Virus record (IMG/VR): IMGVR_UViG_3300033407_000062
Location: 1 to 38,245 of that record
DNA length: 38,245 nt
DNA from: a virus
Strand: one strand, 5' to 3'
How positions within the stretch are numbered: the first letter of the stretch is position 1; the number at the start of each line of letters is the position of its first letter. A program made the translations under genes and the position numbers. Below are positions 6,784 to 24,963 of this stretch, piece by piece. Under the pieces are notes generated by a model. That model had not been told where the DNA came from and made no database searches. It saw only the letters and a program-made list of their open reading frames with translations.

Positions 6784-6850
6784 TTCGCCACCCGTTCAGT
6801 TTCTTTAACCTGTGCTATAATTTGTCCTGTCATTGAAGGTTCCTTTCCTG

Positions 6851-6883
6851 AAAATCTCCGCCCCGCAAAGAGGCGGAGATTTT
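6851..6883. terminator. intrinsic terminator after the RecT gene (usable in both directions)
   Basis: AAAATCTCCGCC-ccgcaaaga-GGCGGAGATTTT, 12-bp arms read directly. Confidence 0.7.
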
Positions 6884-6889
6884 CGTTAA

Positions 6890-7969
6890 TTATGCTGATA
6901 CCTTTTTCAATTGCTGAATGATATACACTCCTGCGTATTCGATACGCTTCGCGTCCATTTTATCACGCTCATAGAGCGGGAGATTTAGACCAGCTTCCTT
7001 CGCCTGCTCTACCAGCTTTTGGAAGTCATCCCAGGCGCCATCGCCGCCAGTTGTTTCGTTGGCGACTGTTGTTACAGGCTTACGCATGGGGCCTGGGGTA
7101 GTAGACTCGATAGGCAACTCCGCAACAACTTCGGGATCGTCCGGGGGGAACATCTGATCAACTTCGTCGATGTCCTCATAGACAGGTTCTATTGCGTCAA
7201 TCGTCTCAGCCTCGACAGTTTCATCTTCCTGTAACGCTTCCCTCAATTTGCTGGACGCGCCGCCTGACAAATCCATGAACTTCGATAACTTTATGAATAC
7301 CGTTTTCATTTCCATGGTCGGGCGTTTTTTTGGATCCTGCCATGCTCCGTATTTTGAGTTGTAACTGGCGGGCGACCATGTAAGAGCATGGGTTTGAATT
7401 TCTACCAGCGTCATCCAGACCGATTTCTCAAAACCGTGCTTTGTTTTGAAGTATCCGAGATAACCGATAACGGGCGCGGTCGGGCTTCCACTGGTTACGT
7501 CGCGCATATTGTCAATCCTCAAGCCGCCCTCACCCTGGACGGGCGCGAATAAGGTTTCGCTACCACCCTTGGCCCAATAATGGAGGCCTGTCTGCGGGTC
7601 TTGCAGTACACGCTCACCCTGATGGATAGGCATGACCGAGATATAGCGGTATTGATTCGTGCGGACTGCCAGATCATACAGCCCTGCGTAATGAGGCTGA
7701 AAACAAGCAACACCTTTTCGCGGGACTAGATAGGCTTGGCGGAGCGCAGGGTCAAGTGATAAACCAAGAGCGGCCGACCTGAGCGCACCATTGGCTAGAC
7801 TGTTGGGGGAGCAGTTCATCAGTTCGGAACTGGATGCAATGCAGATCAAAGCGGACTTTATAAATGCGTTCGTTCCGCCTTGCAGAATTTTCTTGAACTC
7901 TGCAATAGTAGCGTCATCTTCAAAGACGGTTAATACCCGTTCGGGTAATGCTGTGATTGGGGATGTCAT
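6890..7969 (-). CDS. recT: RecT-family single-strand annealing protein with C-terminal extension
   Basis: The N-terminal 230 aa have the RecT pattern (..CSPNSLANGALRSAALGLSLDP..AYLVPRKG..FQPHYAGLYDLA..). Confidence 0.75.
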   Translation of the reverse strand: MTSPITALPERVLTVFEDDATIAEFKKILQGGTNAFIKSALICIASSSELMNCSPNSLANGALRSAALGLSLDPALRQAYLVPRKGVACFQPHYAGLYDLAVRTNQYRYISVMPIHQGERVLQDPQTGLHYWAKGGSETLFAPVQGEGGLRIDNMRDVTSGSPTAPVIGYLGYFKTKHGFEKSVWMTLVEIQTHALTWSPASYNSKYGAWQDPKKRPTMEMKTVFIKLSKFMDLSGGASSKLREALQEDETVEAETIDAIEPVYEDIDEVDQMFPPDDPEVVAELPIESTTPGPMRKPVTTVANETTGGDGAWDDFQKLVEQAKEAGLNLPLYERDKMDAKRIEYAGVYIIQQLKKVSA

Positions 7970-7984
7970 GATATTTTCCTTTTC

Positions 7985-8299
7985 CTAAAATGGGATTTCG
8001 TTTGTGCTTGCGTCGCCAGCGGGGTATAGAATATCTCCGCCCATTATATACGGGCTTGGCTCTGTCCCTTCGGGGTTGAGTCGCGCCCGCCATTCAGCCA
8101 CCTCTCGCTCATCCACGTTCACGAACTTGACCGCCTGGTTACATTTGAAACAGTGCCCTTCGTCGTGCGGTCCCATGTCGCCGATGTAGGGCATTACGAG
8201 ACCGCCATCATTCGGGCAGAGGTGGGACATATAGAACCGCCCGTCATCGCGGGTCTTTCCCTGTACTTCGTAGAGACTTGCTTGTCTTGTTTGGGGCAT
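7985..8299 (-). CDS. hypothetical Zn-ribbon-like protein ending in an SSB-tip-like ..NEIPF
   Basis: 104-aa ORF, first gene after a strong promoter. It has CPNDGG...HCFKCNQ and the C-terminus EIPF. Confidence 0.5.
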   Translation of the reverse strand: MPQTRQASLYEVQGKTRDDGRFYMSHLCPNDGGLVMPYIGDMGPHDEGHCFKCNQAVKFVNVDEREVAEWRARLNPEGTEPSPYIMGGDILYPAGDASTNEIPF

Positions 8300-8347
8300 T
8301 AGATAATCCTTTCATTTCGCAAGATTTTATACATTCTGACAGTCCAG

Positions 8348-8376
8348 ATTATAACCGATGTGTATATAAACGTCAA
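8348..8376 (-). promoter_or_regulatory. strong sigma70-type early promoter (-35 TTGACG, 17 nt, -10 TATAAT)
   Basis: Reverse complement reads cTTGACGtttatatacacatcggtTATAATc, about 45 nt upstream of ATG 8299. Confidence 0.75.
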
Positions 8377-8470
8377 GAGAGTTGTATTGACAAATCCTCC
8401 GTCTACCCTAAAGGGCACACGTGTGGTATTATTTAATCATTGGTTGACCTGTCGCAAGCGGGCCGCCAAA

Positions 8471-8495
8471 AAGACCCCGACTGACGCGGGGTCTT
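8471..8495. terminator. bidirectional intrinsic terminator
   Basis: AAGACCCCG-actgacg-CGGGGTCTT with A and T runs on both sides, downstream of the 8561-9064 gene. Confidence 0.7.
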
Positions 8496-8511
8496 TTGCT
8501 TTGATCATGCC

Positions 8512-8621
8512 GCCCAACGGCTTGCGTTACCCGCAGGGGCGAGAACGCAAGACCATAAATTTATTTGAAGACTTCATCATCTGTCACAGCCAGCCCCTGT
8601 CGGGTGCACGCTTTGTTAGGC
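8512..8621 (-). repeat. 110-bp inverted-repeat-ended element, copy 1 (covers the last ~20 codons and stop of the GNAT-like gene)
   Basis: Its reverse complement aligns over all 110 nt with 17910-18019. The last 43 nt are identical, the first 37 nt match 34/37, and the centre has diverged. Confidence 0.85.
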
Positions 8622-9064
8622 ATCGTAGGGACTACTTCCCATAAAGTCTTTTGCTCAATCGGGTGTGTGTCTACTCGCGGACGAGCTGTTCTATTCCACG
8701 TTCCGCCGCCCGCTTCGCCCAAACTGCGCCAGTTTGCAGATACAAGAGATGTGCCCGGCTCTGATTGCAAGGTGTAGGTAATTACGCGCTTATAACCAAG
8801 AGCAAAGGCGGCTCGGCTTGCAGCTCCGTAGAGCATTGACGGCGCGTTCTTTGTGCCATCGGTGGCGCAGCGTGTGACTTCAAGCGTCCAACCATCATCC
8901 AACATTCGAGCAACTGGACGCCCTACCGTGATTACGCCTACAACTTTTTCGCCATCATTCACGGCGATACCAAACTTCCAGCCTTGCGGCGGTAAGTGGT
9001 GACGATGCACGAGCTCAATAAACTTGCACGCTTCGGGGTATGTTATGGGCTGTAGATTCAACAT
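8561..9064 (-). CDS. GNAT-fold-like protein of the prophage-associated XF1762-like family (recalled from memory)
   Basis: Pattern HRHH.PP.G..F...V......VGV..VGRPVAR.LDDG.T.EVTR....G..NA.S.LYGA..RAA.ALGY.R..TY. Confidence 0.5.
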   Translation of the reverse strand: MLNLQPITYPEACKFIELVHRHHLPPQGWKFGIAVNDGEKVVGVITVGRPVARMLDDGWTLEVTRCATDGTKNAPSMLYGAASRAAFALGYKRVITYTLQSEPGTSLVSANWRSLGEAGGGTWNRTARPRVDTHPIEQKTLWEVVPTMPNKACTRQGLAVTDDEVFK

Positions 9065-9073
9065 TTCTTAGAT

Positions 9074-9096
9074 GCCTAACGGCAAGCGTTACCCGC
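9074..9096 (-). repeat. gene-junction motif copy (sense reading GCGGGTAACGCTTGCCGTTAGGC)
   Basis: Contains the TAA stop of 9089-9316 and lies 10 nt upstream of ATG 9064. Confidence 0.75.
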
Positions 9097-9316
9097 CCGC
9101 CGTGTTCGTAGAATCCGCCGCGCTGACCAGAGCCGAAGGAGGGTCGGTGTGCACGCATTGTTCGGCGTCTTTCACAATTGGGAAATCACACTCATAACAA
9201 CGCGACTTTGTTGGCTTGCGGGGGGATGTGACCCATTGCTCATGACCACATTCCAACTCACATAACCACTGTTTTTTATTGAGCGGGGATTTATCAGCCC
9301 GCAAAACTTTTACCAT
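9089..9316 (-). CDS. hypothetical Zn-ribbon protein
   Basis: 75-aa ORF with CELECGH and CYEC pairs. Confidence 0.5.
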   Translation of the reverse strand: MVKVLRADKSPLNKKQWLCELECGHEQWVTSPRKPTKSRCYECDFPIVKDAEQCVHTDPPSALVSAADSTNTAGG

Positions 9317-9339
9317 GACTACCTATCTTCTCGGCAGAC

Positions 9340-9362
9340 GCCGAACGATTTGCGTTAGCGGC
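9340..9362 (-). repeat. gene-junction motif copy, diverged (sense GCCGCTAACGCAAATCGTTCGGC)
   Basis: Aligned by eye to the other copies; lies 24 nt upstream of ATG 9316. Confidence 0.5.
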
Positions 9363-9412
9363 GATGTGGTGGACACCACCGCTAAAATTCAAAGGTTTCA
9401 CGACTTTCTTCA

Positions 9413-9471
9413 CGCGCCCCGTTCGGTGGACAAGCCACCCCGTTCTTTGGGGTGAGCGCAGCTCCACCGAA
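9413..9471 (-). repeat. 59-bp structured intergenic repeat, copy 1
   Basis: Its reverse complement is identical at all 59 nt to 18314-18372. Confidence 0.9.
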
Positions 9472-9499
9472 TAGCGCGAGCGTAAGCGGAAATGCCCGT

Positions 9500-9736
9500 T
9501 CATGGAAGCGGCGCATCCGTCCCGCATACATCGCAGTAAACACTACGATCTTCGAGCAAGGCTTTACACTCGGAACAATACCTAGCCGCTGGAATGGGTG
9601 TTTCCGCTTCACGCAGAGTTGGGCTGCGCGTGTCTAGCCAGTCCGCAAACTCTTTCAAAACCGTGTATTGCGACTCAGAAATACTGTACTCAGTAACATT
9701 GTTCATGTAGATAGCAAGTTCATCATCATACGACAT
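9500..9736 (-). CDS. hypothetical Zn-ribbon protein (78 aa, start MSYDDEL)
   Basis: Internal ATG preceded by AAAGGAAAAAGG. Contains CSEC....CDVCG. The 3' end (PLP-stop) is shared with 18425-18661. Confidence 0.5.
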   Translation of the reverse strand: MSYDDELAIYMNNVTEYSISESQYTVLKEFADWLDTRSPTLREAETPIPAARYCSECKALLEDRSVYCDVCGTDAPLP

Positions 9737-9803
9737 TTGCAACACCTTTTTCCTTTCATCCAAAGCGCAGGTCAATCTCTGCGTTTTCGCTCGCGCTATT
9801 GGG

Positions 9804-9850
9804 CTGACCAAGCCCCCCGCTCTTTGGGGAGTGAGCGCAGCTCCACCGAA
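9804..9850 (-). repeat. structured intergenic repeat, diverged copy 3
   Basis: Sense reading TTCGGTGGAGCTGCGCTCACTCCCCAAAGAGCGGGGGGCTTGGTC. The first 21 nt are identical to the other copies. Confidence 0.75.
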
Positions 9851-9921
9851 CTAGGTACTCGGTTGACAATGTCAGTTTTTTGCATAAATTACTGACATTG
9901 CCCCGATTAGTGACGGGGTTA

Positions 9922-10206
9922 TTAATTAGACACCATCTTCTCGATGGCGATCAGATCCGCAGGCGGTCCCGTCCGTGGGCGGTACTTCCGGAGGTTCGTC
10001 TGGAATTCATCGAGTATCTTTTGGAACTCCGCAAATATGATTTCCTCCGTTACGCCGTCCTGGAGCAGCACCTGCCTGAATTTCAGCGCGACGCCGCCCC
10101 AGGTTTCAGACTTTCCGATCAGCCTGCGCGCGATGGCGTCGTTCCTGAGATTCAGGACATCCACGCGGGAAAGCGTTGTCTTGTTTGGGTCTTTTTGTCT
10201 TGGCAT
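9922..10206 (-). CDS. hypothetical 94-aa protein (start MPRQKDPNK)
   Basis: The ATG is preceded by AAAAGGAGAATAATAAA and the conserved early leader. Confidence 0.5.
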   Translation of the reverse strand: MPRQKDPNKTTLSRVDVLNLRNDAIARRLIGKSETWGGVALKFRQVLLQDGVTEEIIFAEFQKILDEFQTNLRKYRPRTGPPADLIAIEKMVSN

Positions 10207-12098: not shown

Positions 12099-12692
12099 AT
12101 GAAGCCGATCACCTGGACAAATACCCAGTGTAAATTATCACAACTCAAAGAATGGGATAAGAACCCCGTGCGGATTTCTGGCGACGACCTGAAACACCTG
12201 GCCGAGAGCGTCAAGAAGTTTCGAGGCGTCCTGCCGTATGTCGCAGCGGGGCCGATGGTCAAGGGAAGTTATCCACTACTCGACGGACACCAACGCAAGC
12301 GCGCGGAGTTGGAAGTAAACAAAGTCGCGCCCGATCTGCTTGTCGATGTGCGTGTCCCGTCCAGAAAGTTGACGGCGAAGGAACGCTCCGAGATCGTGAT
12401 CCGCCTGCGAAAAAATCAGGGAGAATTCGACGATAAATTACTGCTTGAAAATTTCAAAGACTTCCCCATGATTGAATTCGGTTTCAGTGAAAAGGAATTG
12501 AAGGACTTCGGTTTCGATCCGCCTGAGAGCAAGGACGCAGAGCCTGAGATAGACCGCGCGGCGGAGTTGTTGAAGAAGTGGAAGGTAAAGACGGGCGACT
12601 TGTTCGCTATCGGTGACCATCGCTTGATATGCGGCGACTGTACTGACGCGGCGGTAGTGGCGCGGGTGATGGGGGGGAGAAGGCGCGAATGA
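12099..12692 (+). CDS. ParB-like nuclease-domain protein (N-terminal half of a ParB-MTase architecture)
   Basis: ..LLDGHQRKRAE.. ParB/Srx-like motif. The C-terminus ..GDHRLICGDCTDAAVVARVMGG is the usual linker that precedes TDPPY in fused ParB-methylases. Confidence 0.65.
   Translation: MKPITWTNTQCKLSQLKEWDKNPVRISGDDLKHLAESVKKFRGVLPYVAAGPMVKGSYPLLDGHQRKRAELEVNKVAPDLLVDVRVPSRKLTAKERSEIVIRLRKNQGEFDDKLLLENFKDFPMIEFGFSEKELKDFGFDPPESKDAEPEIDRAAELLKKWKVKTGDLFAIGDHRLICGDCTDAAVVARVMGGRRRE
12671..12677. repeat. G7 homopolymer at the ParB-domain/MTase junction
   Basis: Read directly. One extra G would fuse the two ORFs in frame. Confidence 0.9.
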
Positions 12693-13354
12693 CTATTACA
12701 GATCCGCCGTGGAATGTTGCAATTGGTACAGACAGAAATCCGCGCCACAGACAAAGAGAAGGTCTCCAGAACGACAATATGTCGGACGATGATTATTCTT
12801 TATTTGTCGATGCTTTTATATCGTCCATTGAGCAGAATTGTGCAGGAGATGTTTACTGCAAGGTTGCGTCTGAATACATGGACATTATTGGTGGTATTTT
12901 TAGGGAAAAGAAGTTTCATTGGTCAGCCACTGTCATTTGGGTAAAAGATATATTTGTTTTGGGTAGGTCGAAATACCACAGGAGATACGAGCCACTCTGG
13001 TATGGGTGGCACAGTAAATCAAAGAGTTCCTTCTGTGACGCGCGCGATTTGGACGATGTTTGGGAAATCAAGCGTCCACGTGTTAGTGAGGAACACCCAA
13101 CCATGATGCCCGTTGAGTTACCAGAACGCGCAATTAGAAATTCAAGCAAAGCAGGAGATGTTGTATTCGAGCCATTCGTTGGCTCCGGCACCACCCTCGT
13201 TGCCTGTCAGAACTTAGGTAGGCGCGGACGCGGTATTGAAATAAGTCCAGCTTATTGCGCCGTTACCCTCGAACGTATGGCGACGGCATTTCCAAAACTA
13301 AAAATAACCAAACTCCCTAAGAAAAAGAAGTCATTAAGTCGTGTAGACAACTAA
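12689..13354 (+). CDS. N6-adenine/N4-cytosine DNA methyltransferase (beta-class order: DPPW then FxGxG)
   Basis: MTITDPPWNV at the N-terminus; EPFVGSGTTLVACQNLGRRGRGIEI near the C-terminus. Confidence 0.8.
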   Translation: MTITDPPWNVAIGTDRNPRHRQREGLQNDNMSDDDYSLFVDAFISSIEQNCAGDVYCKVASEYMDIIGGIFREKKFHWSATVIWVKDIFVLGRSKYHRRYEPLWYGWHSKSKSSFCDARDLDDVWEIKRPRVSEEHPTMMPVELPERAIRNSSKAGDVVFEPFVGSGTTLVACQNLGRRGRGIEISPAYCAVTLERMATAFPKLKITKLPKKKKSLSRVDN

Positions 13355-13461: not shown

Positions 13462-15189
13462 ATGGCGAAGAAGAAGCGCACAGAGCCGCAGAGACTTCTC
13501 GACCTGCCTGTTATCGAAGCGTTATCAATCAAGGGATGGTTACAAAAGGATATAGTCGATCACCTTAACGAAATACGCCCCTATAAATTGACACAGCAAC
13601 AAGTGTCTTACGACATCGCTCAAATCCGTGAGCGCTGGGTCGAAGCCGCCACCCAGGAGATACTCGAATCCCGTGGACGCGTGCTTGCGACCCTGCGCGT
13701 TCAGCAGGAGGAAGCCTGGCGCGGATGGGTACGCAGCACCGAACCGATCAAGGTCACGCAAAAGCGCATCACCGAAGGTCCACAGGGGACAACGAAGGAA
13801 ATGACCGAGCGCACCGAAGAGGGCAAATGGGACAAGGGCTTTTTGGATGTCGTAACCGCGAACATAAAAAGCTACCGCGATATTTTAGGCATGGACGCGC
13901 CGAAGCAGGAAAAGGGCGACCTGCTAAACCCATCCGATAAGCCGCAGAATATCACCATCCCCGCCGACGTTATCGCGCCCGATATGCTGGCGTCCTATCG
14001 CGCGATCAAGTCGGGGCAGTATCATGAATTTCTGGAAGAGGGCGGGCGCGGTAGTACCAAGTCGTCATTCATAAGTATGATGTGCATTGAGTTGTTGATC
14101 AACAATCCCGACGTGCACATGCTGGCCTCCCGTCAAGTCGGTAACACGATGCGGGATAGTGTCTACGCACAACTCAAATGGGCTATCGGCGAACTCGGAT
14201 TATCCGACCTGTTCAAGACCATCACGAACCCGATGGAGATCACCTACCTGCCGACCGATCAAAAGATATATTTCCGCGGGATGGATGATGTCGGCAAAAT
14301 AAAATCAATTACACCCGTCAAGGGTTATATCGGTATTTTCTGGCTGGAGGAAGCAGATCAGGCACGCGGCCCCGAAGCGATCCGTAAGGTCGAGCAGAGT
14401 CTACGCGGCGGTGAAAAGATGTGGTTCTTCAAGTCGTGGAACACCCCCCGCCCGCTGAAGCATTGGATTAATCAATACGTCCTGACCCCCAAGAAAAAGC
14501 AATACCATCACAAAAGCAATTATATGAATGTACCGCGCGAATGGCTGGGGAGTATCTTCATCGAGGAAGCCGAACACCTGCGACAAGTCAATCCGAAAGC
14601 CTATGCCAATGAATACATGGGCGAAGCGACCGGCTTGGGCGGTACGGTATTCGAGAACGTGGTAGGCAGGGAGATCACCGATAAAGAGATCAAGCAGTTC
14701 GACCAGGTTGGGCAGGGCATGGATTACGGCTGGTTCCCTGATCCGTTCGTATGGACGCGCAGCCACTTTGACGCCGCCCGCCTGAAACTGTATATTTTCG
14801 ATGAATACCACGTAAATAAAAAGCGCAATAAAGCCGTGTATAACTATCTGGTCAAAGAAAAGCACATCGACAAATACAAGAATGAATTAGTTATCGGCGA
14901 CTCAGCATCACCGAAAGACGTGGCCGACTTCCGCGAGTACGGCATGAACATACGCGGAGCAGAGAAGGGCCCCGACTCAGTTGATTATTCCATGAAGTGG
15001 TTGCAGGGATTGGTCGAGATCGTCATTGACCCCGTGCGCTGTCCGTACACACTAAAGGAATTCTATTCTTACGAATTGGAGCAGAACAAAGATGGTGAAT
15101 TCATCAGTTCCTATCCAGACCGTGATAACCACTCGATTGATTCTGTGCGCTATCGAACTAATCTGCTATGGCGTCGTCGCGGTCAATGA
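13462..15189 (+). CDS. terL: terminase large subunit (PBSX/XtmB-like) with an extra ~170-aa N-terminal HTH-like region
   Basis: Walker A EEGGRGSTKS. Terminase-like motifs follow. The gene sits before the portal gene. Confidence 0.8.
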   Translation: MAKKKRTEPQRLLDLPVIEALSIKGWLQKDIVDHLNEIRPYKLTQQQVSYDIAQIRERWVEAATQEILESRGRVLATLRVQQEEAWRGWVRSTEPIKVTQKRITEGPQGTTKEMTERTEEGKWDKGFLDVVTANIKSYRDILGMDAPKQEKGDLLNPSDKPQNITIPADVIAPDMLASYRAIKSGQYHEFLEEGGRGSTKSSFISMMCIELLINNPDVHMLASRQVGNTMRDSVYAQLKWAIGELGLSDLFKTITNPMEITYLPTDQKIYFRGMDDVGKIKSITPVKGYIGIFWLEEADQARGPEAIRKVEQSLRGGEKMWFFKSWNTPRPLKHWINQYVLTPKKKQYHHKSNYMNVPREWLGSIFIEEAEHLRQVNPKAYANEYMGEATGLGGTVFENVVGREITDKEIKQFDQVGQGMDYGWFPDPFVWTRSHFDAARLKLYIFDEYHVNKKRNKAVYNYLVKEKHIDKYKNELVIGDSASPKDVADFREYGMNIRGAEKGPDSVDYSMKWLQGLVEIVIDPVRCPYTLKEFYSYELEQNKDGEFISSYPDRDNHSIDSVRYRTNLLWRRRGQ

Positions 15190-15271: not shown

Positions 15272-16789
15272 ATGAATAATTTTATATCGTCCATTTGGAA
15301 CTGGATCAAAGGAGTATTTGGCATGAATCAAACTCAAATAAATAAGGCATTTAATATAACCCTGATGGATGTCTCGACCCCGATGGTTGAGGCTCTTTTG
15401 TTATGGTCGAAGCTGTACAAGAATGAGGCAGACTGGACAACCGCCGACACCCCCAGCCTGTCGCTCCCATCCGCTATCGCTGGCGAAATCGCGCGCCTCA
15501 CGACCATAGAAATGGAAGTCAATATCACCGGGAAGAAACCCGACCAGGCACCCGATACAACCGCGCCCGTCGAGCCTGCCCCTTCCAAGCGTGCGGATTA
15601 CCTGTCTATACAATTTGATAAGGTGATGAGCCGACTAAGAGAGGAAGTCGAATACGGATGCGCGAAGGGCGGGATGGTCATCAAACCATACGTCAACGGT
15701 AAAGAGATCGCCTTCAACTTTGTGCAGGCTGATGAGTTTTTCCCGATTGAGTTCGACGCCAATGACGCAATGGTAGATGTTGTATTCTCCGACCAGCGTA
15801 AGATCGGCGATACCTATTACACGCGCCTGGAACGTCACACGATGGGGGATACCGTTATCAATGGCAAACCACGACGCGGATGCAATATCATCAACAAGGC
15901 GTACAAATCCAGCACTCAGGAAACACTTGGCAGCGAGATCGAATTATCAAGCGTTCCCGCATGGGCTGAACTCGAAGGCGACAAGTGGATCGCGCCGCTG
16001 GATAAACCCTTATTCTCTTACTTCAAGTTCCCGCAAGCCAACAACATAGACACCGCGTCCCCCCTGGGCGTCTCGTGCTACGCGCGCGCGGCGATGGGTA
16101 CAAATCCGCTGATCAAACAAGCGGATGATATTTGGTCTAATTTCCTGTGGGAGTTTGAGTCTGGCAAGCGGGCCATCGACGTGGATGAACTGGCGTTCGA
16201 CCGCGACTCTAACGATAACCCCATCCTGCCGAACCGCCGACTATATAGAACTTATAAACAGAGCGGTACAAGTATTGGCGCGGGCGGGGATCTGTTTAAG
16301 GAATGGACGCCGACTCTGCGAGAACAGAATATACTCGCAGGGCTGAACGCGATATTGAAGCGGATCGAGTTTGTGACATCATTGGCCTATGGCACGCTCT
16401 CCGATCCGAACCTGGTCGATAAAACGGCGACTGAAATTGTGTCACAGAAACAAAGGTCATACGCCCTTGTTAGTGATACTCAAAAGGCATTACAAGCAAC
16501 AATAGAGCAGACGGTTTGGGCTATGAATGCGTGGGCAGATATTAATAAGCTGTCTCCGCGCGGAGATTATGACGTTAGTTGCGACTTCGATGATTCTCTC
16601 ATTGTAGATAGTCAGGCGCAATTCTCTCAGGATCAACAGGCGGTTGGAATGTCTGCCATGTCTAAACAAAAATTCCTGGAACGTAACTACGGGCTGACGC
16701 CATCGGCCGCGCAGCTGTGGGTCAAGGAAGCGCAGGAGGAGCGCCCGCCCGTTGATCTATTCTCGAATCTGGATGAAACAGGATCGTAG
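15272..16789 (+). CDS. portal protein (SPP1 gp6-like)
   Basis: 505-aa ORF after terL with GAGG RBS. Size, position and acidic C-terminus are typical of portals. Confidence 0.7.
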   Translation: MNNFISSIWNWIKGVFGMNQTQINKAFNITLMDVSTPMVEALLLWSKLYKNEADWTTADTPSLSLPSAIAGEIARLTTIEMEVNITGKKPDQAPDTTAPVEPAPSKRADYLSIQFDKVMSRLREEVEYGCAKGGMVIKPYVNGKEIAFNFVQADEFFPIEFDANDAMVDVVFSDQRKIGDTYYTRLERHTMGDTVINGKPRRGCNIINKAYKSSTQETLGSEIELSSVPAWAELEGDKWIAPLDKPLFSYFKFPQANNIDTASPLGVSCYARAAMGTNPLIKQADDIWSNFLWEFESGKRAIDVDELAFDRDSNDNPILPNRRLYRTYKQSGTSIGAGGDLFKEWTPTLREQNILAGLNAILKRIEFVTSLAYGTLSDPNLVDKTATEIVSQKQRSYALVSDTQKALQATIEQTVWAMNAWADINKLSPRGDYDVSCDFDDSLIVDSQAQFSQDQQAVGMSAMSKQKFLERNYGLTPSAAQLWVKEAQEERPPVDLFSNLDETGS

Positions 16790-16880
16790 ACCTTGCGCGT
16801 TTTTGAATTGTGTATTACAATTGCCGTATAAAACATAGTTCGGCGGCTTCCTTGCCAGCCGAATACGCAAGGAGAATATC

Positions 16881-17132
16881 ATGTCTGGATTTATGAGTAA
16901 CTGTCCATTTGGCGATCATGGCGAAGCGTTTTTGTGGCATGGAAGCGGTAACGACGAAATAGATGTTGCCGTTGTTGAACTCATGCAGTTGTCAGAGTTG
17001 GATGAAAAAACGGCTCTTGAAATTGCAGATGAAATCGGCGCATGTTTATCACGCCGCCGAACAATGCTTGCACCCGACAAGGGGCAGGCGGCGGTCGTGA
17101 AAGATAATCAGGTCTTTGCCCCTTGCGGGTAA
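16881..17132 (+). CDS. hypothetical 83-aa acidic protein
   Basis: AAGGAG RBS. Its stop codon lies inside a junction motif. Confidence 0.5.
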   Translation: MSGFMSNCPFGDHGEAFLWHGSGNDEIDVAVVELMQLSELDEKTALEIADEIGACLSRRRTMLAPDKGQAAVVKDNQVFAPCG

Positions 17133-17147
17133 AGCCAGCCGTTAGGC
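17125..17147 (+). repeat. gene-junction motif copy (GCGGGTAAAGCCAGCCGTTAGGC)
   Basis: Contains the TAA of 16881-17132. ATG 17158 follows 10 nt later. Confidence 0.75.
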
Positions 17148-17157
17148 AACTAAAACA

Positions 17158-17970
17158 ATGAACCCTTATTATCAAAAAGATGGCATCACGATCTACAATG
17201 GCGATTGCCGCGAAGTCATGGCGGGCTTGCCTGATAATTCGTGTGGTCTAACGGTCACATCTCCGCCTTACAACATGCGAACCCGCATCCGTAATGGCGA
17301 GTACACCACCCGCGAACAGACAGACCACTTTAGCAGGAAGTATGAGCATTTTAGCGACGCACTTTCACCACAAGAGTATTATGAATTTCACAGTCACGCT
17401 ATCCGTGAAATGATGAGAATTTCAAATACGGTGCTTTGGAATATTCAGATTGTCACAGGTAGCAAAGAAGCCGTGTTCCGCATGATTGGCGATTTTGCCA
17501 AAGAAATAAAAGACATCATCGTGTGGGATAAAGGTCATGGTCAGCCAGCCATGCACGATAACGTAATCAATAAAGCGGCTGAATTGATTTTGATTTTTGA
17601 GAAAAACGCAACGGCAGGTAGAGAGTTTTCAAGGTCGTTTTTTCCTCGTGGTGAAATGACAGACATCTGGCGAATGAAGCGCGGCAATAATACCGAAAGT
17701 CACGGCGCAACTTTCCCGCTTCATTTGGCGCAAAAGGCTATCACTGGCTGGAGCGCAGAGAATGACGTTATCCTTGATCCATTCATGGGTACAGGTACAA
17801 GCCTAATAGCCGCAAGGAACGAAGGACGAAAAGCGGTAGGCATTGAAATCTCCGAAGAATATTGTGAGTTGGCGGTAAAGGGTCTGGCGCAAATGTCGCT
17901 CTTTACGTTGCCTAACACAGCGTCCACCCGACAGGGGCGGGCTGTGGCTCAAAATGAGTTATTCGGATAA
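17158..17970 (+). CDS. second DNA methyltransferase (N4/N6 family, SPPY motif)
   Basis: VTSPPYNM, then DPFMGTGTSLIAARNEGRKAVGIEI near the C-terminus. Confidence 0.8.
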   Translation: MNPYYQKDGITIYNGDCREVMAGLPDNSCGLTVTSPPYNMRTRIRNGEYTTREQTDHFSRKYEHFSDALSPQEYYEFHSHAIREMMRISNTVLWNIQIVTGSKEAVFRMIGDFAKEIKDIIVWDKGHGQPAMHDNVINKAAELILIFEKNATAGREFSRSFFPRGEMTDIWRMKRGNNTESHGATFPLHLAQKAITGWSAENDVILDPFMGTGTSLIAARNEGRKAVGIEISEEYCELAVKGLAQMSLFTLPNTASTRQGRAVAQNELFG

Positions 17971-18019
17971 TTATCAGGTCTTGCGTTCTCGCCCCTGCGG
18001 GTAACGCAAGCCGTTGGGC
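17910..18019 (+). repeat. 110-bp inverted-repeat-ended element, copy 2 (covers the last ~20 codons and stop of the MTase; its 3' arm 17997-18019 is a junction-motif copy)
   Basis: Aligned by eye with the reverse complement of 8512-8621. Confidence 0.85.
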
Positions 18020-18040
18020 TGACCCCGAAGGAAAATAAAC

Positions 18041-18304
18041 ATGAGCGAACATAATCCGAACGCATGGCAAGATGGTTTTGACGCATGGCAAAATGGATAC
18101 GATGACGCAATGTACGATGGTATTGATACGTCAAGCGAAATGCCGTGCAAATGCGAAGCGTGCCTGAAAGGTTACGCCGAAGGTCAAGAAGCCGCCTTGA
18201 AAGAAATCTTTGCTGGCAGTCAGTCTGCCCAACAAAGCGTGCCCCCGACTGTTGCTACAGTCGCCGCGCAAGAAGTCAATTTGGATGCCCGCAACAGCGG
18301 GTAA
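18041..18304 (+). CDS. hypothetical 87-aa protein
   Basis: GAAGGA RBS. Its stop codon lies inside a junction motif. Confidence 0.5.
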   Translation: MSEHNPNAWQDGFDAWQNGYDDAMYDGIDTSSEMPCKCEACLKGYAEGQEAALKEIFAGSQSAQQSVPPTVATVAAQEVNLDARNSG

Positions 18305-18319
18305 CGCAAACCGTTCGGT
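18297..18319 (+). repeat. gene-junction motif copy (GCGGGTAACGCAAACCGTTCGGT)
   Basis: Contains the TAA of 18041-18304 and runs into the 59-bp repeat. Confidence 0.75.
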
Positions 18320-18372
18320 GGAGCTGCGCTCACCCCAAAGAACGGGGTGGCTTGTCCACCGAACGGGGCGCG
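18314..18372 (+). repeat. 59-bp structured intergenic repeat, copy 2
   Basis: TTCGGTGGAgctgcgctCACCCCaaagaacGGGGTGgcttgTCCACCGAAcggggcgcg, with nested inverted repeats read directly. Confidence 0.9.
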
Positions 18373-18424
18373 GGATGTAATTCCGTTTTATCGGCTCTTT
18401 GAGAGCAGAAAGGTGTGGCTAAAA

Positions 18425-18661
18425 ATGGTAATGTGTTGGAGAGATAATCACGTTTTTTTGTGGGCAGACTATAATACTCTTGGCATCCCCGAAGGCTTGA
18501 TTTGCACGTGCGGCAAGCATCGCCTGACACGCTCCGCCGAACAACGGAATGATGCGGAAACGGGCATTCCAGCGGCTTGCGAGCATATGAATCGTATTCA
18601 TGGGACGGGGAACGATTGGTGTCTCGACTGTGGTTACTTCCCATTGCCGCCGCTTCCATGA
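18425..18661 (+). CDS. hypothetical Zn-ribbon protein (78 aa, start MVMCWRD)
   Basis: Contains CTCG and CLDCG pairs. The longer 104-aa ORF would start inside the repeat. Confidence 0.45.
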   Translation: MVMCWRDNHVFLWADYNTLGIPEGLICTCGKHRLTRSAEQRNDAETGIPAACEHMNRIHGTGNDWCLDCGYFPLPPLP

Positions 18662-18997
18662 ACGCCCGTTCCGCATATCCCGCGCCCCGTTAGACCCCTT
18701 CTTTCCATGAAGGGCGAACTTTGAAAAAATGAATGTTACGGCGTGCTTGAGCAACACTTTGGAGAAATCCATTCCGTGGATATGCCATAGCAGAGTAAGT
18801 CGGTAAAATTCCGACCCGCTGTTTCAGGCTTAGACCCCGCGTGTAGCGCGTAAAAAACTTCGGGCTTAGTAGCTTGTATTTCCGAGCGCGGGGTCTAACA
18901 AAGCATGCACCTGACGCTGGGGCAGTGTGCGAAATCTCAAACATTATCAAGGCTGTGGCGTTATCAGCGCGGACGGTTTCACCGTCCGAACCCCAGC

Positions 18998-19020
18998 GCA
19001 GGTAATGCCAGCCGTTAGGC
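18998..19020 (+). repeat. gene-junction motif copy (GCAGGTAATGCCAGCCGTTAGGC)
   Basis: ATG 19030 follows 9 nt later. The flank ..GCCAGCCGTTAGGCAAaTAAAACATG nearly repeats the one before ATG 17158. Confidence 0.7.
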
Positions 19021-19029
19021 AAATAAAAC

Positions 19030-19278
19030 ATGCACACTCACCCCAAGCCATTCACATTCACATTCACAAGATCGAAGCGGAAGCACTTGCGCCCGCCGAG
19101 ATTTTTTGTCATCTGCTCAGAGTGTGGCGTAGAGTTGCAGGCCGTCGAGGATGTGGACGGTTCGATCCATACATTCAGCACCAACCGCAGGCGGACGCGG
19201 AAACGGGTATACTCTTTCAGGCTGACCCCTGAGTCTGCCGAACGGGTTAGGGCTATGCAAAAAACAGGAGAGCTGTAA
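19030..19278 (+). CDS. hypothetical basic protein (82 aa)
   Basis: Contains CSECG. Coupled to the next gene. Confidence 0.45.
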   Translation: MHTHPKPFTFTFTRSKRKHLRPPRFFVICSECGVELQAVEDVDGSIHTFSTNRRRTRKRVYSFRLTPESAERVRAMQKTGEL

Positions 19279-19280
19279 CG

Positions 19281-19613
19281 ATGAGTATTATTGCTGATAT
19301 AAATACGGCTGTGATGGATGCGTATAAAAAGACAGGCGACTACCCCACAAAGATACACATAACCGATTCAGCGTATTATAAACTTTTGCAAGATGACGCT
19401 AAATACATGGGACAATGGACAGTATCCCCACCTCCACAAGATACGATTATGGGGGTTGAATGCCAACGATGGAGAGACGGGATGTTGGGTGACAGAGAGT
19501 TTGCACTGGATTATCAGGACGACTTAAAAAACGCTTACGCTTTTGGTTATGTTGTCCGAGATAAAGAGATAAAAAAAACCGAAATTAAATACCTGCACGT
19601 CGAAAGAATCTAA
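19281..19613 (+). CDS. hypothetical 110-aa protein
   Basis: GGAGAG RBS. Its stop abuts the ATG of the MuF-like gene. Confidence 0.55.
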   Translation: MSIIADINTAVMDAYKKTGDYPTKIHITDSAYYKLLQDDAKYMGQWTVSPPPQDTIMGVECQRWRDGMLGDREFALDYQDDLKNAYAFGYVVRDKEIKKTEIKYLHVERI

Positions 19614-21698
19614 ATGTTAGACCCCGACTTCCTTGACACACTCCCAGCCGAAGCCGTCGAGCTTTATCAGGAATTTGCCGACGGCGTGATCTCCGACCTT
19701 GCGCGTCGAATAGGTAATATGTCCTATTCATCCGCAGGCTGGCAGGCGCAGCGGTTACAGGAAGCGGGGCTTGCCTATCAGGACATCATCAAGCGCGTCG
19801 CACAACTGACAGGAAAATCAGAGGCGGCCATTCGGGGGATTTTCTACCGCGCGGGCGTCCGCTCCATGAGGTTCGACGAAAAGATATACAAGGCGGTGGG
19901 CATTGACCTGCCGCTCACGCTATCCCCCGCGATGCAGGACGTGCTGAATATAGGCATTCTCAAAACGAACGGGATACTCAAGAACCTGACACTCACGACC
20001 GCGCTATCAGGGCAACAGGAGTTCATTCGCGCCAGTGACATTGCCTATCTCGAGGTGACCAGCGGGACACGCGATTACAACAGCGCGATAAAAAAGGCGG
20101 TCACGAGCCTGGCGGATCGCGGGATCACATCCGTCAATTATCAAAGCGGCCACACGGATCAGATCGACGTAGCCGTGCGTAGAAACGTGCTAACAGGCAC
20201 GCAACAGACAGCGGGCGCGTTACAGCAGCAGCGCATGGATGAAGTCGGCGTTAATCTGGTCGCCGTGTCCGCTCATGCGGGAGCGCGTCCGTCACATCAG
20301 TTATGGCAGGGTAAGGTTTATTCCAGAACAGGCAGGCAGGGAAAATATAAAGACTTCGTAACTGAAACAGGCTACGGGACGGGACCAGGGCTTGGAGGTT
20401 GGAACTGTGTCATCGGCGATACCATGGTTTCAAGCCTTGCTAAACGTGCCGCTTACCGCCGTGAGTATTCCGGTGAGTTGATCGTCATTCACACCGCCGC
20501 AGGCAAGGAGCTTACCGTCACTCCGTATCACCCAATACTCACCGACCATGGATGGGTCGCGGCGAAGTTTCTTGACCATGGAGATTATGTAATCTGCCGC
20601 CCCGCGCTCGATGGGTCTTTTGAATCCAGCCCAGACGTAGACCAAAGCGAATCCAGAATTGAGGATGTATTTGATTCTCTTTCTGTAAGCGGGGCGATCT
20701 TCGACCTTCCTATTTCGTCCGGTAACTTCCACGGCGAGATTCCCGATGGCAAAGTCAACGTTGTATTTTCCGATGGCTTTTTGAGGGATGGCGTCGATCC
20801 CGTGATCGAGCAGGAGTTGGAAGAGGTCGGCTTCGGCTTTCCCGCGCGTTTTTCCAGTACGCTCATTTCCGAGCGCGCGCTTCCTAAGATCGTTGTACGT
20901 TCTCTTCATGCCTCTGACCGCATCGTGAGCGGCTTCGGTGAGGTCGATTCTCTCGTCGGCAGTCATTCTAGCGAGCCTGTTGACCATGGCTTCAGACCTA
21001 TCTTCGGCGATAGGTACTCCGAGTTTGTCGAGATACCTTCCGACAGCCCCCTCAGATATTCCAGTTTTGAAAGCGATTTCGTTCTTCCACATACCAGATT
21101 TATACATTTCAATCAAATCATCAGGGGTAACATTGAAGCGCCTTTTGATATATCCTTTCCAGTCATTTCCAGTGTAGACCCCGTTACGACGCAAGCAGTT
21201 TTGGATCGCATGAACAGAACAGCGATTCTTATCCGCGATGAATTGCAGGGTGTGGTTAGAGAGGTAGAGCTTGACTACATTGTCAGTATCGAGCGGAAGC
21301 CTTTTACGGGTCATGTTTATAATCTCCACACAGAAGGTGAATGGTATTCTGCAAATGGGATTATAACGCATAACTGCCGACATTCTCAATATCCATTCTA
21401 CGAGGGCATATCTGAGAACGTCTACAATCAGGAGATGCGCGAACAACTGGCTAATAAAACCGTCACGCTGAACGGCGTCGAGATGTCGCAGTACGATGCG
21501 TCACAGGTGCAGCGCGGTCTGGAGCGTAAAATAAGATTTTGGAAGCGGCGCAAGATAGCCATCGACGCGACAGGCTTGGACATAGACACATCCGTAGAGA
21601 CTACCAAAATACGTTATTATCAGAGTCAATTACGCGAATTTGTAAGGCAGACAAAACTTCCCCGCCAGAATGTGCGCGAGCAGGTTGTTGGCCAGTGA
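19614..21698 (+). CDS. head-morphogenesis / minor capsid protein (MuF, SPP1 gp7-like) interrupted by a 323-aa intein
   Basis: The exteins join as ..GPGLGGWN|CRHSQYPF.., a typical MuF conserved core. Intein blocks A, B, F and G are recognised (see the 20406-21374 feature). Confidence 0.8.
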   Translation: MLDPDFLDTLPAEAVELYQEFADGVISDLARRIGNMSYSSAGWQAQRLQEAGLAYQDIIKRVAQLTGKSEAAIRGIFYRAGVRSMRFDEKIYKAVGIDLPLTLSPAMQDVLNIGILKTNGILKNLTLTTALSGQQEFIRASDIAYLEVTSGTRDYNSAIKKAVTSLADRGITSVNYQSGHTDQIDVAVRRNVLTGTQQTAGALQQQRMDEVGVNLVAVSAHAGARPSHQLWQGKVYSRTGRQGKYKDFVTETGYGTGPGLGGWNCVIGDTMVSSLAKRAAYRREYSGELIVIHTAAGKELTVTPYHPILTDHGWVAAKFLDHGDYVICRPALDGSFESSPDVDQSESRIEDVFDSLSVSGAIFDLPISSGNFHGEIPDGKVNVVFSDGFLRDGVDPVIEQELEEVGFGFPARFSSTLISERALPKIVVRSLHASDRIVSGFGEVDSLVGSHSSEPVDHGFRPIFGDRYSEFVEIPSDSPLRYSSFESDFVLPHTRFIHFNQIIRGNIEAPFDISFPVISSVDPVTTQAVLDRMNRTAILIRDELQGVVREVELDYIVSIERKPFTGHVYNLHTEGEWYSANGIITHNCRHSQYPFYEGISENVYNQEMREQLANKTVTLNGVEMSQYDASQVQRGLERKIRFWKRRKIAIDATGLDIDTSVETTKIRYYQSQLREFVRQTKLPRQNVREQVVGQ
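20406..21374 (+). mobile_element. class-1 intein (Cys1 ... His-Asn, +1 Cys) with no recognisable in-frame endonuclease domain
   Basis: CVIGDTMV (block A), TVTPYHPILTDHGWVAAKFLDHGDYV (block B), GHVYNLHTEGEWYSANGIITHN followed by C (blocks F/G). Confidence 0.8.
20430..21314 (-). CDS. antisense homing-endonuclease-like gene inside the intein: two HTH-like repeats plus a DUF559/Vsr-like PD-(D/E)XK domain
   Basis: GGAG lies 9 nt before ATG 21314. Contains ..NEIAFKTGISEGAVGRYLDKLG.. and ..QKAIGKYNVDFAIGNLAVEVTGRNRKVEDRPAYRKRIKYILNSGFALVYVW.. Confidence 0.7.
   Translation of the reverse strand: MTRKRLPLDTDNVVKLYLSNHTLQFIADKNRCSVHAIQNCLRRNGVYTGNDWKGYIKRRFNVTPDDLIEMYKSGMWKNEIAFKTGISEGAVGRYLDKLGVPIAEDRSEAMVNRLARMTADERIDLTEAAHDAVRGMKRTYNDLRKRALGNERTGKTRGKAEADLFQLLLDHGIDAIPQKAIGKYNVDFAIGNLAVEVTGRNRKVEDRPAYRKRIKYILNSGFALVYVWAGFKRPIERGAADYIISMVKKLRRDPSMVGEYWVIRSDGKLLACGGVNDDQLTGILTAVSGTFSKA
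21360..21389 (-). promoter_or_regulatory. sigma70-like promoter for the antisense endonuclease gene (-35 TTGAGA, 18 nt, -10 TATAAT)
   Basis: Reverse complement of 21384-21389 and 21360-21365. It overlaps the intein C-terminal splice-junction codons. Confidence 0.5.
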
Positions 21699-23400: not shown

Positions 23401-23496
23401 GTTTAGTCAATCGGCTATCCGCGAAGCCTAAAAGGCGCGGGCATCTGACGGAGAAGACCGTCTAAAACAATCTATATGTGAAACGGAGTAAATCAA

Positions 23497-24054
23497 ATGA
23501 ATAAGAAACAATTGACCGACCTGGGTATCGAAGAAGAAGTTGCAGATCAGATCATCGTTTTGCATGGCAAGGACATCGAGAAACACAAAGGCGATATTAC
23601 CACCCTGCAAACCGAACTTGATACCGCCAACGCCAGCTTGACCGAAGCAGGCCAGACCATTGAGAAATTCAAAGGTATGGACATCGACGCGATCAAGCAG
23701 GCCGCCGAAGATTACAAGGTTGAAGCCGAAAAAGCCAAGACCGAAGCGGCGGAGCAGATCCTATCGCTGAAACGCGGTCACGCCCTGGATGAAGCCCTGA
23801 AAGGCTCGTACAAGGTCAAGGACATCAAAGCGGTCAAGGCTTATCTGGATGATGAGAAGATCCAATTCAACGAGAAAGACGGTTCGTTTGTCGGCCTCAA
23901 GGAACAGATCGACCCATTGCTGACAGAAAAAGATTATCTATTCATTGACGAATCCGAAACGCCGAAGATCGTGGATGGCGCTAAATCTAAATCAGTACTA
24001 CCAGATGCTTTCGACGCCGCAATGAAGAAGGGCGCGGGCATCCCAACCGAATAA
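23497..24054 (+). CDS. scaffolding protein
   Basis: Acidic, helical 185-aa ORF directly before the capsid gene, with GGAG RBS. Confidence 0.7.
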   Translation: MNKKQLTDLGIEEEVADQIIVLHGKDIEKHKGDITTLQTELDTANASLTEAGQTIEKFKGMDIDAIKQAAEDYKVEAEKAKTEAAEQILSLKRGHALDEALKGSYKVKDIKAVKAYLDDEKIQFNEKDGSFVGLKEQIDPLLTEKDYLFIDESETPKIVDGAKSKSVLPDAFDAAMKKGAGIPTE

Positions 24055-24066
24055 GGATAAAACAAA

Positions 24067-24963
24067 ATGGCTAACTCCATTACATTAGTAAGTAAGTTTG
24101 TAGCCTTGATCGACACGGTCTACAAGCTGGAAAGCAAGACCGCCATGCTTGACCCGCTCACTCAGACCCCGGACTTCCTGGGCGCGAACGAGATCAAGGT
24201 CATGAAACTGTCCGCCGTAGGTCTTGGTACTTACAGCCGCGTGACAGGCTATCCCGCTGGCAATATCACCGCCGCGTGGGAAACGATGACACTGGCCGCA
24301 GAACGCGGCCGCGAGTTCACACTTGATCGCATGGATAACGAAGAAACTCTCGGCCTGGTGCTTGGTGCGTTAATCCGTGAATGGATGCGCGCCTATGTCG
24401 CGCCCGAACTCGACGCCTATCGATTCGCAAAGTACGCCGCAGGCGCAGGCTTGACCGTCGCCTCCCCCGCGACCCTCTCGACCGCCGCCGCAGTATTGGC
24501 CGCCATCGACGCGGGAAATCTTGCCATGAGCAACCAGGAAGTACCAGAGGAAGGGCGCAAGCTGTTTATCACTTACACCCTGTACGAACTTCTCAAAGCG
24601 TCCCTGACCCGCTCATGGACGAACGATGGCGCAGTAAGCCGCGCGGTTACATCCCTTGAATCGACCCAGGTTATCCCCGTCCCGCAGTCGCGTTTCTATT
24701 CCGCGATTGACCTGGACGCAGGCGCCACGGGCGGCGCGGGTGGTTTCGCCAAATCAGGCGACACCGGCACCGCCGATCTGAACTTTATGATCGTTGCCCC
24801 CTCCGCTGTCTTGCAACCGGTCAAGCTGAACATGGTCAAGTATTTCAGCCCGGACGTTTGGCAGGGTGGTGACTTCCACGCCTGGCAGTACCGCCTGTAT
24901 CATGACGCCTTTGTCTATGACAATAAGGTCAACGGGATCTACACTCACCTCAAAGATAGTTAG
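24067..24963 (+). CDS. major capsid protein
   Basis: 298-aa ORF after the scaffold gene with AAGGA RBS. Call rests on position and size. Confidence 0.7.
   Translation: MANSITLVSKFVALIDTVYKLESKTAMLDPLTQTPDFLGANEIKVMKLSAVGLGTYSRVTGYPAGNITAAWETMTLAAERGREFTLDRMDNEETLGLVLGALIREWMRAYVAPELDAYRFAKYAAGAGLTVASPATLSTAAAVLAAIDAGNLAMSNQEVPEEGRKLFITYTLYELLKASLTRSWTNDGAVSRAVTSLESTQVIPVPQSRFYSAIDLDAGATGGAGGFAKSGDTGTADLNFMIVAPSAVLQPVKLNMVKYFSPDVWQGGDFHAWQYRLYHDAFVYDNKVNGIYTHLKDS

Follow-up and report, generated by a model that had tools for sequence, protein, structure and literature searches.

Integron-type attC sites and probable integrase-less cassette arrays in the early and late regions of an uncultured siphophage genome

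At gene boundaries, T4-type phages have promoter-early stem-loops (PeSLs) and cluster K mycobacteriophages have start-associated sequences, both of them repeated intergenic motifs for which a role in modular shuffling or gene expression has been proposed. To our knowledge, these elements have no site-specific recombinase, no R and L box architecture and no crossover signature. Here we describe a gene-boundary motif of another kind in IMG/VR virus record IMGVR_UViG_3300033407_000062, a siphophage genome analysed over its whole length of 38,245 nt (hereafter ‘the window’): very probably, this motif is the L′–spacer–R′ half of the attC recombination site of integrons, and the phage carries two cassette arrays of the kind known as clusters of attC sites lacking integron integrases (CALINs).

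Published attC sites are 57–141 bp long, with spacers of 5–6 nt, and are marked by G16, T23/24 and a 6-bp stem (PMC5027507). In a survey of 10,705 isolate phage genomes, Qi and colleagues recorded three complete integrons and 17 CALINs, with methyltransferase cassettes in the cargo, and demonstrated experimentally that IntI1 recombines phage attC sites with attI1 (Qi et al., 2023, Front Microbiol, PMC9892861). Phage CALINs have thus been known, as rarities, since 2023, and the window is a further example. Cassettes can also enter non-integron DNA, at G|WT (attG insertion), and be expressed near a resident promoter (Loot et al., bioRxiv 10.1101/2022.09.11.507474).

Anatomy and pairing of the attC sites

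A sequence-only reading of the window had described a 23-bp junction motif between small genes. A degenerate-pattern search allowing up to three mismatches returned exactly the seven copies that this reading had listed, with starts at 17125, 17997, 18297 and 18998 on the plus strand and at 8512, 9074 and 9340 on the minus strand; no copy arose in 100 dinucleotide-preserving shuffles of the window, and all seven are co-oriented with the local genes, as had been claimed. What did not survive is the unit itself: rather than 23 bp, the conserved unit is an inverted-repeat element of 92–128 nt, the 5′ arm of which lies 70–105 nt upstream of the motif and mostly inside the preceding open reading frame (ORF; repeat analysis, family D2). 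Positions 8512-8627 and 17904-18019, for example, form a 116-nt inverted repeat of 84% identity.

Read along the top strand, the element is an imperfect hairpin that opens with RYYYAAC and continues through 3 nt, GCGT, GC, ACCCG, a single A and a helix to a variable loop, then returns through the second half of the helix, CGGGT, A, ACGC and 5 nt to GTTRRRY. In integron terms these parts would be, in order, R″ (RYYYAAC) with a 3-nt spacer, L″ with its unpaired bases, a variable and often coding loop, L′ (..GGTAACGC) with a 5-nt spacer, and R′ (G|TTRRRY); judged by this anatomy, the motif is the 3′ arm (L′ box, spacer and R′ core GTTRRRY) of integron attC sites. The R″ consensus is matched by all six strong sites and the R′ consensus strictly by five, in pairs such as GCCGAAC/GTTAGGC, GCCTAAC/GTTGGGC and GTCTAAC/GTTAGGC; the sixth R′ core (18313, GTTCGGT) has a C at the first R position, as do the boundary cores of both arrays. 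AAC and GTT are invariant across sites, and the spacers measure 3 nt on the ″ arm and 5 nt on the ′ arm in every site. Strong sites are 92–128 nt long, and two divergent sites (in cassettes C4 and M1, below) are about 158 nt.

The two arms are held together by pairing. Across 13 sites from the window and one relative (IMG/VR locus L001), 92% of the cells in the proposed pairs are paired, a value reached by none of 500 shuffles and well above slid controls (22–38%), and 12 of the 22 pairs are altered on both sides, both in the outer stem (GCGT/ACGC, GCTT/AAGC, GCAT/ATGC) and in the inner one (ACCCG/CGGGT, ACCTG/CAGGT, AGTGG/CCACT). In 150 bacterial sites of the same family the corresponding figures are 92.7% paired and 15 of 20 pairs altered on both sides. 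Minimum free energy (MFE) z-scores, for sites folded as DNA, are −3 to −4 at several sites. In the alignment, the bottom-strand arm that faces the cleaved AAC has C15/G16 unpaired opposite a single base and, at position 22, a bulged T that never varies; the stem between G16 and T22 has 5 bp, or 6 bp if G16 pairs with T, an assignment made from the alignment alone, as MFE folds vary. A covariance model (CM) built from the same 13 sites, run on the window with filters off, found no further site elsewhere in the window.

A conserved C-terminal peptide was considered and ruled out, as ORFs differ in the frame in which they cross the 5′ arm, with all three represented (R″ begins at codon phases 1, 2, 0, 0 and 2); the conservation is therefore at the level of nucleic acid rather than peptide. 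The conserved TAA in L′ explains the earlier remark that the motif supplies the stop codon, and it is indeed the stop codon of ORFs 16881-17132, 18041-18304 and 9089-9316. ORFs that run into a site are ended by this TAA: they commonly traverse the 5′ arm and the loop and stop there, or stop earlier, inside the loop, in cassettes C2 and M4. One attC subtype, represented in relatives L001 (5738-5860) and L016 (1075-1197), has a coding loop, from which the cassette protein receives a C-terminal tail that is hydrophobic and transmembrane-like, so that part of a recombination site is there coding sequence.

Cassette arrays of the late and early regions

The late-region array (16838-19020, plus strand) lies between the genes for an SPP1-type portal (15272-16789) and MuF/minor capsid protein 2 (19614-21698, plus strand), an interval that, as reported earlier, holds six small ORFs including an N6_N4 methyltransferase. 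Each cassette would begin with TTRRRY, followed by a short leader, then an ORF and lastly an attC site. The left boundary is the core site cataG|TTCGGC (16838..16844, plus strand), with the crossover point after G16838, and its TTCGGC is the exact complement of GCCGAA in the R″ of the first cassette. Just upstream, TTGAAT-N18-TATAAA is visible by eye at about 16804-16833; the promoter scan did not call it. Cassette C1 (16839..17141) has an 83-residue ORF (16881-17132) ending at the TAA of its L′ box, an attC at 17056-17147 (CM 82.8 bits) and a match of six in six between its own start and its R″. Cassette C2 (17142..18013) encodes an N6/N4 DNA methyltransferase (17158-17970; PF01555, E = 7e-33), followed by an attC at 17910-18019 (86.5 bits). 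Cassette C3 (18014..18313) holds an 87-residue ORF (18041-18304) and an attC at 18227-18319 (69.7 bits). Cassette C4 (18314..18689) holds a small cysteine-rich ORF (18425-18661) and a divergent, long attC at about 18538-18695 (18536-18695 as scored by the CM) that scores 7.4 bits, with its R″, its L stem with a bulged A and its R′ (GTTAGAC) read by eye.

Cassette C5 (18690..19014) has no convincing ORF, and no Rfam or tRNA match was found in its 18690-18892 region; it may be a non-coding cassette. Its attC (18893-19020, 84.2 bits) is 86% identical from 18907 on to the last attC of L001, and its start, TTAGAC, is complementary to its R″, GTCTAA. This cassette also contains a 12-bp perfect inverted repeat, TTAGACCCCGCG / CGCGGGGTCTAA (18829-18840 and 18887-18898). 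The sequence at its start, GTTAGACCCC (18689-18698), is identical to that at the start of the MuF gene, ATGTTAGACCCC (19616-19625), which may be coincidental or may record an earlier recombination event at a secondary G|TT site.

The claim that the island is built from small cassettes stands for these five element-bounded units and fails for the two genes that follow, which are not bounded by motifs. The gene after the last attC (19030..19278, plus strand) is conserved in L001, where it adjoins MuF (7113-7352, 93% amino acid identity); the CM finds no attC 3′ of it, and an exact-protein look-up returned nothing on record. The next gene (19281-19613, within 19279..19613, plus strand; 110 amino acids, matching no family) occupies precisely the space from the stop codon of ORF 19030-19278 to the start codon of MuF. 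L001 lacks it, and there TAA and ATG abut (TAA-ATG-TTAGAC); it is a separate insertion made without attC mediation and not an integron cassette. Two further details of the earlier description concern the 3′ flank of the motif. A common flank does link 17125-17157 with 18998-19030 (91% identity over 33 nt), and the distance of 9–35 nt given as usual for the next ATG does not apply to the copy at 18297, where the next accepted ATG ORF (18425) begins 105 nt downstream of the motif end.

The early-region array (9851-8512, minus strand) opens at the boundary cctaG|TTCGGT (9845..9851, minus strand). Its first cassette, M1 (9472..9850), carries a Zn-ribbon ORF (9736-9500) and a long divergent attC ending A|TTCGGT. 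Cassette M2 (9346..9471) has no ORF and a weak attC (9340-9427, 15.1 bits), yet its R″ ACCGAA matches its own start TTCGGT at six of six positions. In M3 (9080..9345), a 75-residue ORF (9316-9089) stops at the TAA of L′, with an attC at 9074-9166 (64.4 bits), and M4 (8518..9079) encodes a Mom-like DNA-modification protein (9064-8561; phrog_1384, E = 1e-32) followed by an attC (8512-8621, 94.2 bits). The array is followed by a terminator-like hairpin at about 8494-8467, recognized by eye, and by a strong promoter for the next operon.

The two arrays share one type of cassette. The ORFs of C4 and M1 are paralogous (coding repeats I11 and I12), although Pfam found no family in the C4 ORF and the Zn-ribbon match belongs to its M1 paralogue (9500-9736). 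The structured 5′ leader of C4 (18314-18383) repeats 9402-9471 at 94% over 70 nt, as part of a second repeat family (TTCGGTGGAGCTGCGCTCACCCCAAAGAACGGGGTGG...) at 18314-18383, 9471-9402 and 9851-9828 that forms a hairpin at the 5′ end of Zn-ribbon cassettes and is their common structured leader. The attC sites of these cassettes are long and have coding sequence in the loop, and the example in L001 (3707-3871) scores 28 bits. A look-up of the gene at 9922-10206 returned nothing but a Logan assembly of the same phage (L179, SRR10376053), in which the contig breaks inside this repeated leader.

Integron recombination makes a prediction about these cassettes that can be read from their ends. The bottom strand of an attC would fold into an imperfect hairpin, the integron integrase would cut it between A and C of AAC, that is, at G|TT on the top strand, and the cassette would leave as a circle to be re-inserted at another core site. 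As the TTRRRY that follows each attC then belongs to the next cassette, R″ should match the first six bases of its own cassette better than the downstream core with which it pairs in the array. Comparing the two matches, we found the own start to be better in 13 cassettes of the window and L001, with one tie and none worse (p = 1.2e-4); eight of the nine window cassettes match at six of six positions. Other fetched arrays give 47 better, 13 tied and 12 worse at viral loci, and 54, 2 and 3 at bacterial loci. In keeping with this, frequent loss of pairing in the alignments is confined to positions 2 and 4 of the R box. Judged by these cassette ends, the own-start match is the footprint of IntI crossover at G|TT.

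Each array has at least two co-oriented attC sites and no intI nearby, which is the definition of a CALIN: the late array (17056-19020, plus strand) has four strong sites and one divergent site, and the early one (9851-8512, minus strand) two strong, one weak and one divergent. No tyrosine recombinase was recognized by Pfam or PHROGs among the submitted ORFs, which included every ORF of at least 250 amino acids, and tblastn of the whole window against three IntI proteins gave no integrase or remnant. With no intI in the window, both arrays are therefore CALINs and not complete integrons, in which intI adjoins the array.

Several other repeat classes were considered and set aside. A miniature inverted-repeat transposable element or transposon does not fit elements that lack target-site duplications, occur in a fixed orientation along the genes, and have arms that covary rather than being identical. 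The template and variable repeats of a diversity-generating retroelement are excluded by the lack of a reverse transcriptase and by more than two copies, and CRISPR-like or tandem repeats by irregular spacing and an ORF in each unit. As for PeSLs, to which the sequence-only reading had likened the motif, the copies have no promoter consensus, and the motif belongs to an integron attC family that is not specific to phages.

Cassette turnover, integrases and probable host

The sequence-only reading had also taken the motifs as cassette boundaries, perhaps recombination sites for gene shuffling, and had proposed that related phages be aligned to see whether gene gain and loss fall on them. They do. 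L001, the portal of which is 90% identical in amino acids, aligns with the window up to 16844, that is, through the core site, then carries a different set of about nine cassettes, all of which have an attC and show the own-start signature, and becomes homologous again at the last attC, ORF 19030 and MuF. In L180, a 1.3-kb contig that was the sole match of the portal search in metagenome contigs (portal 87%), the same cataG|TT junction is followed by a third set of cassettes. Both relatives have cataG|TTGGGC at the place of the left boundary in the window, such that the breakpoints coincide with the motif core (cataG|TT, window 16838-16844).

Other related phages have their arrays elsewhere. 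In L016, a more distant relative (TerL 56%, portal 51%, MuF 51%, major head protein 57%), only 6–7 nt separate the portal stop codon from the MuF start codon, and an attC array of its own, opening caatAG|TTCGGCGGC, lies upstream of TerL; in L045 and L054 arrays lie near tail genes. The adjacency of portal and MuF in L016, together with the shared flanks, identifies the island of the window as an insertion into an otherwise tight portal–MuF junction. Overall, arrays stand beside homologues of structural or lysis genes of the window phage in seven loci (L016, L045, L054, L034, L012, L015 and L047). Individual cassettes recur as well: the Mom-like cassette at 93% amino acid identity in an IntI-linked array (L051), the methyltransferase cassette at 80% in the array of a viral locus (L046), and the ORF 18041 cassette at 61% in viral locus L032, where it keeps its 5′ leader and heads the array that follows IntI.

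The CM found 264 sites in 57 IMG/VR loci and 161 in genome loci, the latter mostly from Chloroflexota and reaching 11 per 8 kb. The 3′-arm pattern likewise falls mostly in Chloroflexota among genome contigs, chiefly in metagenome-assembled genomes (MAGs) of Anaerolineales. As hundreds of chance single matches are expected in a 17-nt genome scan, only CM-confirmed loci were used; single matches in isolates (Pedobacter or Mesorhizobium, for example) lacked such confirmation and are attributed to chance. Since the same attC family occurs in mostly Chloroflexota genome contigs, the host of the phage is probably a bacterium of the Anaerolineae (Chloroflexota).

Several of these arrays lie beside integrase genes. 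The search probe was an IntI1 sequence; four of its matches, and the integrase of phage Rctr41k, which was found by DNA similarity, were confirmed independently with the NCBIfam model TIGR02249 (‘integron integrase’); all five tested proteins scored 383–431 bits against a cut-off of 265, and the remaining matches come from tblastn. The confirmed integrases adjoin same-family arrays in a Brevefilum MAG (L098), in viral loci L032, L035 and L042 and in Rctr41k, and homologues detected by tblastn alone lie beside arrays in two further MAG loci (L104 and L061). In the three MAG loci, of which L098 alone is TIGR02249-confirmed, intI diverges from the array, the classical layout. Viral loci L032, L035, L037 and L042 have intI and array in the same orientation, with the intI stop codon 10–35 nt before the first cassette (..GGATAG|TTGGGC); L051 is IntI-linked too and groups with these co-oriented loci. 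When the window junctions are set against the IntI-proximal ones of L032, L037 and L042, just (A)TAG|TT is shared. Viral locus L032 also encodes an FtsK-like protein 56% identical to that at 2119-4038 of the window. ‘Virus Rctr41k’ (KX853513, Caudoviricetes, with a terminase; L181), a GenBank record, contains an unannotated complete integron at 4372-9793, upstream of the terminase gene: its ‘xerD-like’ gene is a TIGR02249 integron integrase (383 bits), co-oriented with, and followed by, six attC sites of the same family.

As the window encodes no IntI, the enzyme acting on its sites would have to come in trans, possibly from a chromosomal integron of the probable Anaerolineae host or from a co-resident IntI-encoding phage. 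The cassettes, co-oriented inside the early and late phage operons, would be expressed by read-through. As to cargo, the N6/N4 methyltransferase and the Mom-like enzyme most likely serve DNA modification, as counter-defence against restriction.

The remainder of the genome is that of a siphophage. Bases 1-127 are identical to 38119-38245 (127 nt), a circular assembly overlap or terminal redundancy, because of which the window is read as a circularly assembled genome of 38.1 kb. The leftward early region encodes RecT, a replication initiator, a DnaC-like protein and an FtsK-like protein; a second methyltransferase gene lies outside the island (12689-13354), followed by TerL (13462-15189) and, beyond the portal and MuF, the major head protein (24067-24963), tape measure protein (29935-32043) and endolysin (36069-36977). 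The island does not differ from the remainder of the genome in GC content. The MuF gene holds an intein (Pfam Intein_splicing at residues 279-587), and the MuF homologue in L016 matches both sides of it with the insert absent. The HTH/DnaB_2 replication-initiator gene (5965-6783) contains a tandem of three 21-nt repeats (TGCCTCAGAGTCACTAGTTTTTG-like, 6373-6437), which resemble iterons and may mark an origin of replication. An Rfam GP20-b RNA match (23413-23474; 29.7 bits, under the gathering score of 36.2) lies directly 5′ of the gene at 23497-24054, which itself precedes the major head protein gene, and a perfect 23-nt palindrome with a 2-nt spacer (35374-35421) lies within ORF 35073-36059. 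No tRNA or tmRNA gene was found in the window, megablast of 12 kb of the window against GenBank phages gave no match, and RecT had no relatives in IMG/VR.

Competing explanations and comparison with known systems

Several observations weigh against integron recombination as the explanation. The spacers of 3 and 5 nt depart from the canonical 5–6 nt; the bulged T lies at 22, after a 5-bp stem, rather than at 23/24 after 6 bp; the C4, M1 and M2 sites are divergent and score low with the CM; the window has no integron integrase or remnant and no demonstrable attI; and homologous recombination in conserved flanks could swap whole arrays between phages without IntI. The last two points also sustain the most serious rival, in which part of a host array entered the phage on a single occasion, through illegitimate or homologous recombination, and has since been an inert fossil, with relatives differing through ordinary homologous recombination between phages or between attC sites that resemble each other. 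The flanks do match those of L001 on both sides (portal on one, last attC and ORF 19030 on the other), such that a double crossover could exchange arrays; some attC sites seem chimeric, with arms of different subtypes (K7 of L001 by arm comparison, and the 5′ end of M1); and off-target recombination into phage genomes was raised also by Qi and colleagues (PMC9892861). A single capture sits poorly, however, with a genome of 38 kb that has two independent arrays, each oriented along transcription, and with array positions that differ among relatives, from upstream of TerL (L016) to near tail genes (L045, L054). Nor would a fossil be expected to keep the own-start to R″ signature intact in eight of nine cassettes, or to have relatives among viral genomes that encode IntI directly abutting such arrays. 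We regard this explanation as improbable.

A primary role in RNA, as sites of mRNA processing or stabilization comparable to the RNase III sites of T7-like phages, as weak terminators or as points of translational coupling, would suit copies that are always oriented with transcription, that supply stop codons, that often have a start codon nearby without a Shine-Dalgarno sequence, and that would form hairpins in mRNA too (going by the z-scores of the DNA folds), and attC sites have been noted as possible weak terminators (PMC9892861), but it leaves unexplained why R″ matches its own cassette start rather than its pairing partner in the array, why relatives break at G|TT and why the sites are linked to IntI genes, and we give it hardly any credence. 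No Rfam family was found at the motif even at a permissive threshold, the sole overlap being a chance MIR398 match, and promoter and terminator scans gave no support for the motif as either. RNA processing or translational coupling, both of which the sequence-only reading had offered, may occur as side effects; the G|TT crossover signature is not explained by them. That interpretation as a whole is thus partly supported.

Preferring integron recombination, we can extend it, tentatively and at a little under even chances, to the whole lineage: siphophages infecting Anaerolineae may use the integron as a routine system of accessory-gene exchange, some with their own IntI and others dependent on one in trans. 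Rctr41k, L032, L035, L037 and L042 would represent the former, with a co-oriented intI ending 10–35 nt before the first cassette, and the window phage the latter, keeping arrays at fixed (A)TAG|TT docking sites in its early and late operons and borrowing IntI. The arrays might then serve as exchangeable banks of counter-defence genes (methyltransferases, Mom-like enzymes, small Zn-ribbon proteins), mirroring bacterial chromosomal integrons, which bank anti-phage defence genes. More broadly, an anonymous junction motif gives way to a defined and experimentally testable mechanism, integron recombination seems to shuffle phage genes even inside the conserved portal–MuF head module, and Chloroflexota phages emerge as a rich, hitherto unnoticed reservoir of phage-borne integron cassettes. 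These observations suggest direct cassette traffic between host integrons and phages, and the use of cassettes by phages for counter-defence via DNA modification; new anti-defence functions may lie among the many small cassette proteins.

How do these sites and arrays compare with known systems? With integron attC sites and bacterial CALINs they share the RYYYAAC and GTTRRRY boxes, covarying L boxes and unpaired spacer (Cury et al., 2016, PMC4889954; Nivina et al., 2016, PMC5027507), the variable loop, a length of 92–128 nt, crossover at G|TT, and one promoterless ORF per cassette in a single orientation. They differ from bacterial CALINs in residing in a phage genome, where one splits the head-morphogenesis module and the other lies within an early operon, and from bacterial attC sites in that most ORFs traverse the 5′ arm, often to stop at the L′ TAA. 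The simple junctions cataG|TT and cctaG|TT recall attG insertion, although here multi-cassette arrays take the place of single insertions, and the attG consensus has a right-hand CRGM, while the original target in the window is lost. The phage CALINs of Qi and colleagues (PMC9892861) are likewise integrase-less arrays of co-oriented cassettes with N6_N4 methyltransferase cargo. A Chloroflexota host is not mentioned there, however, and Rctr41k does not appear in the main text. What the window adds is an uncultured Chloroflexota-phage lineage; two arrays in one genome, one splitting portal from MuF and a second in the early region; direct comparative evidence, from close relatives, for cassette turnover at a fixed core-site junction; and signs that phage-borne integrons are common in this lineage, some with an abutting, co-oriented intI, and have been missed in at least one GenBank record, all drawing on an attC family common to the integrons of the host lineage and to IntI-encoding relatives of the phage.

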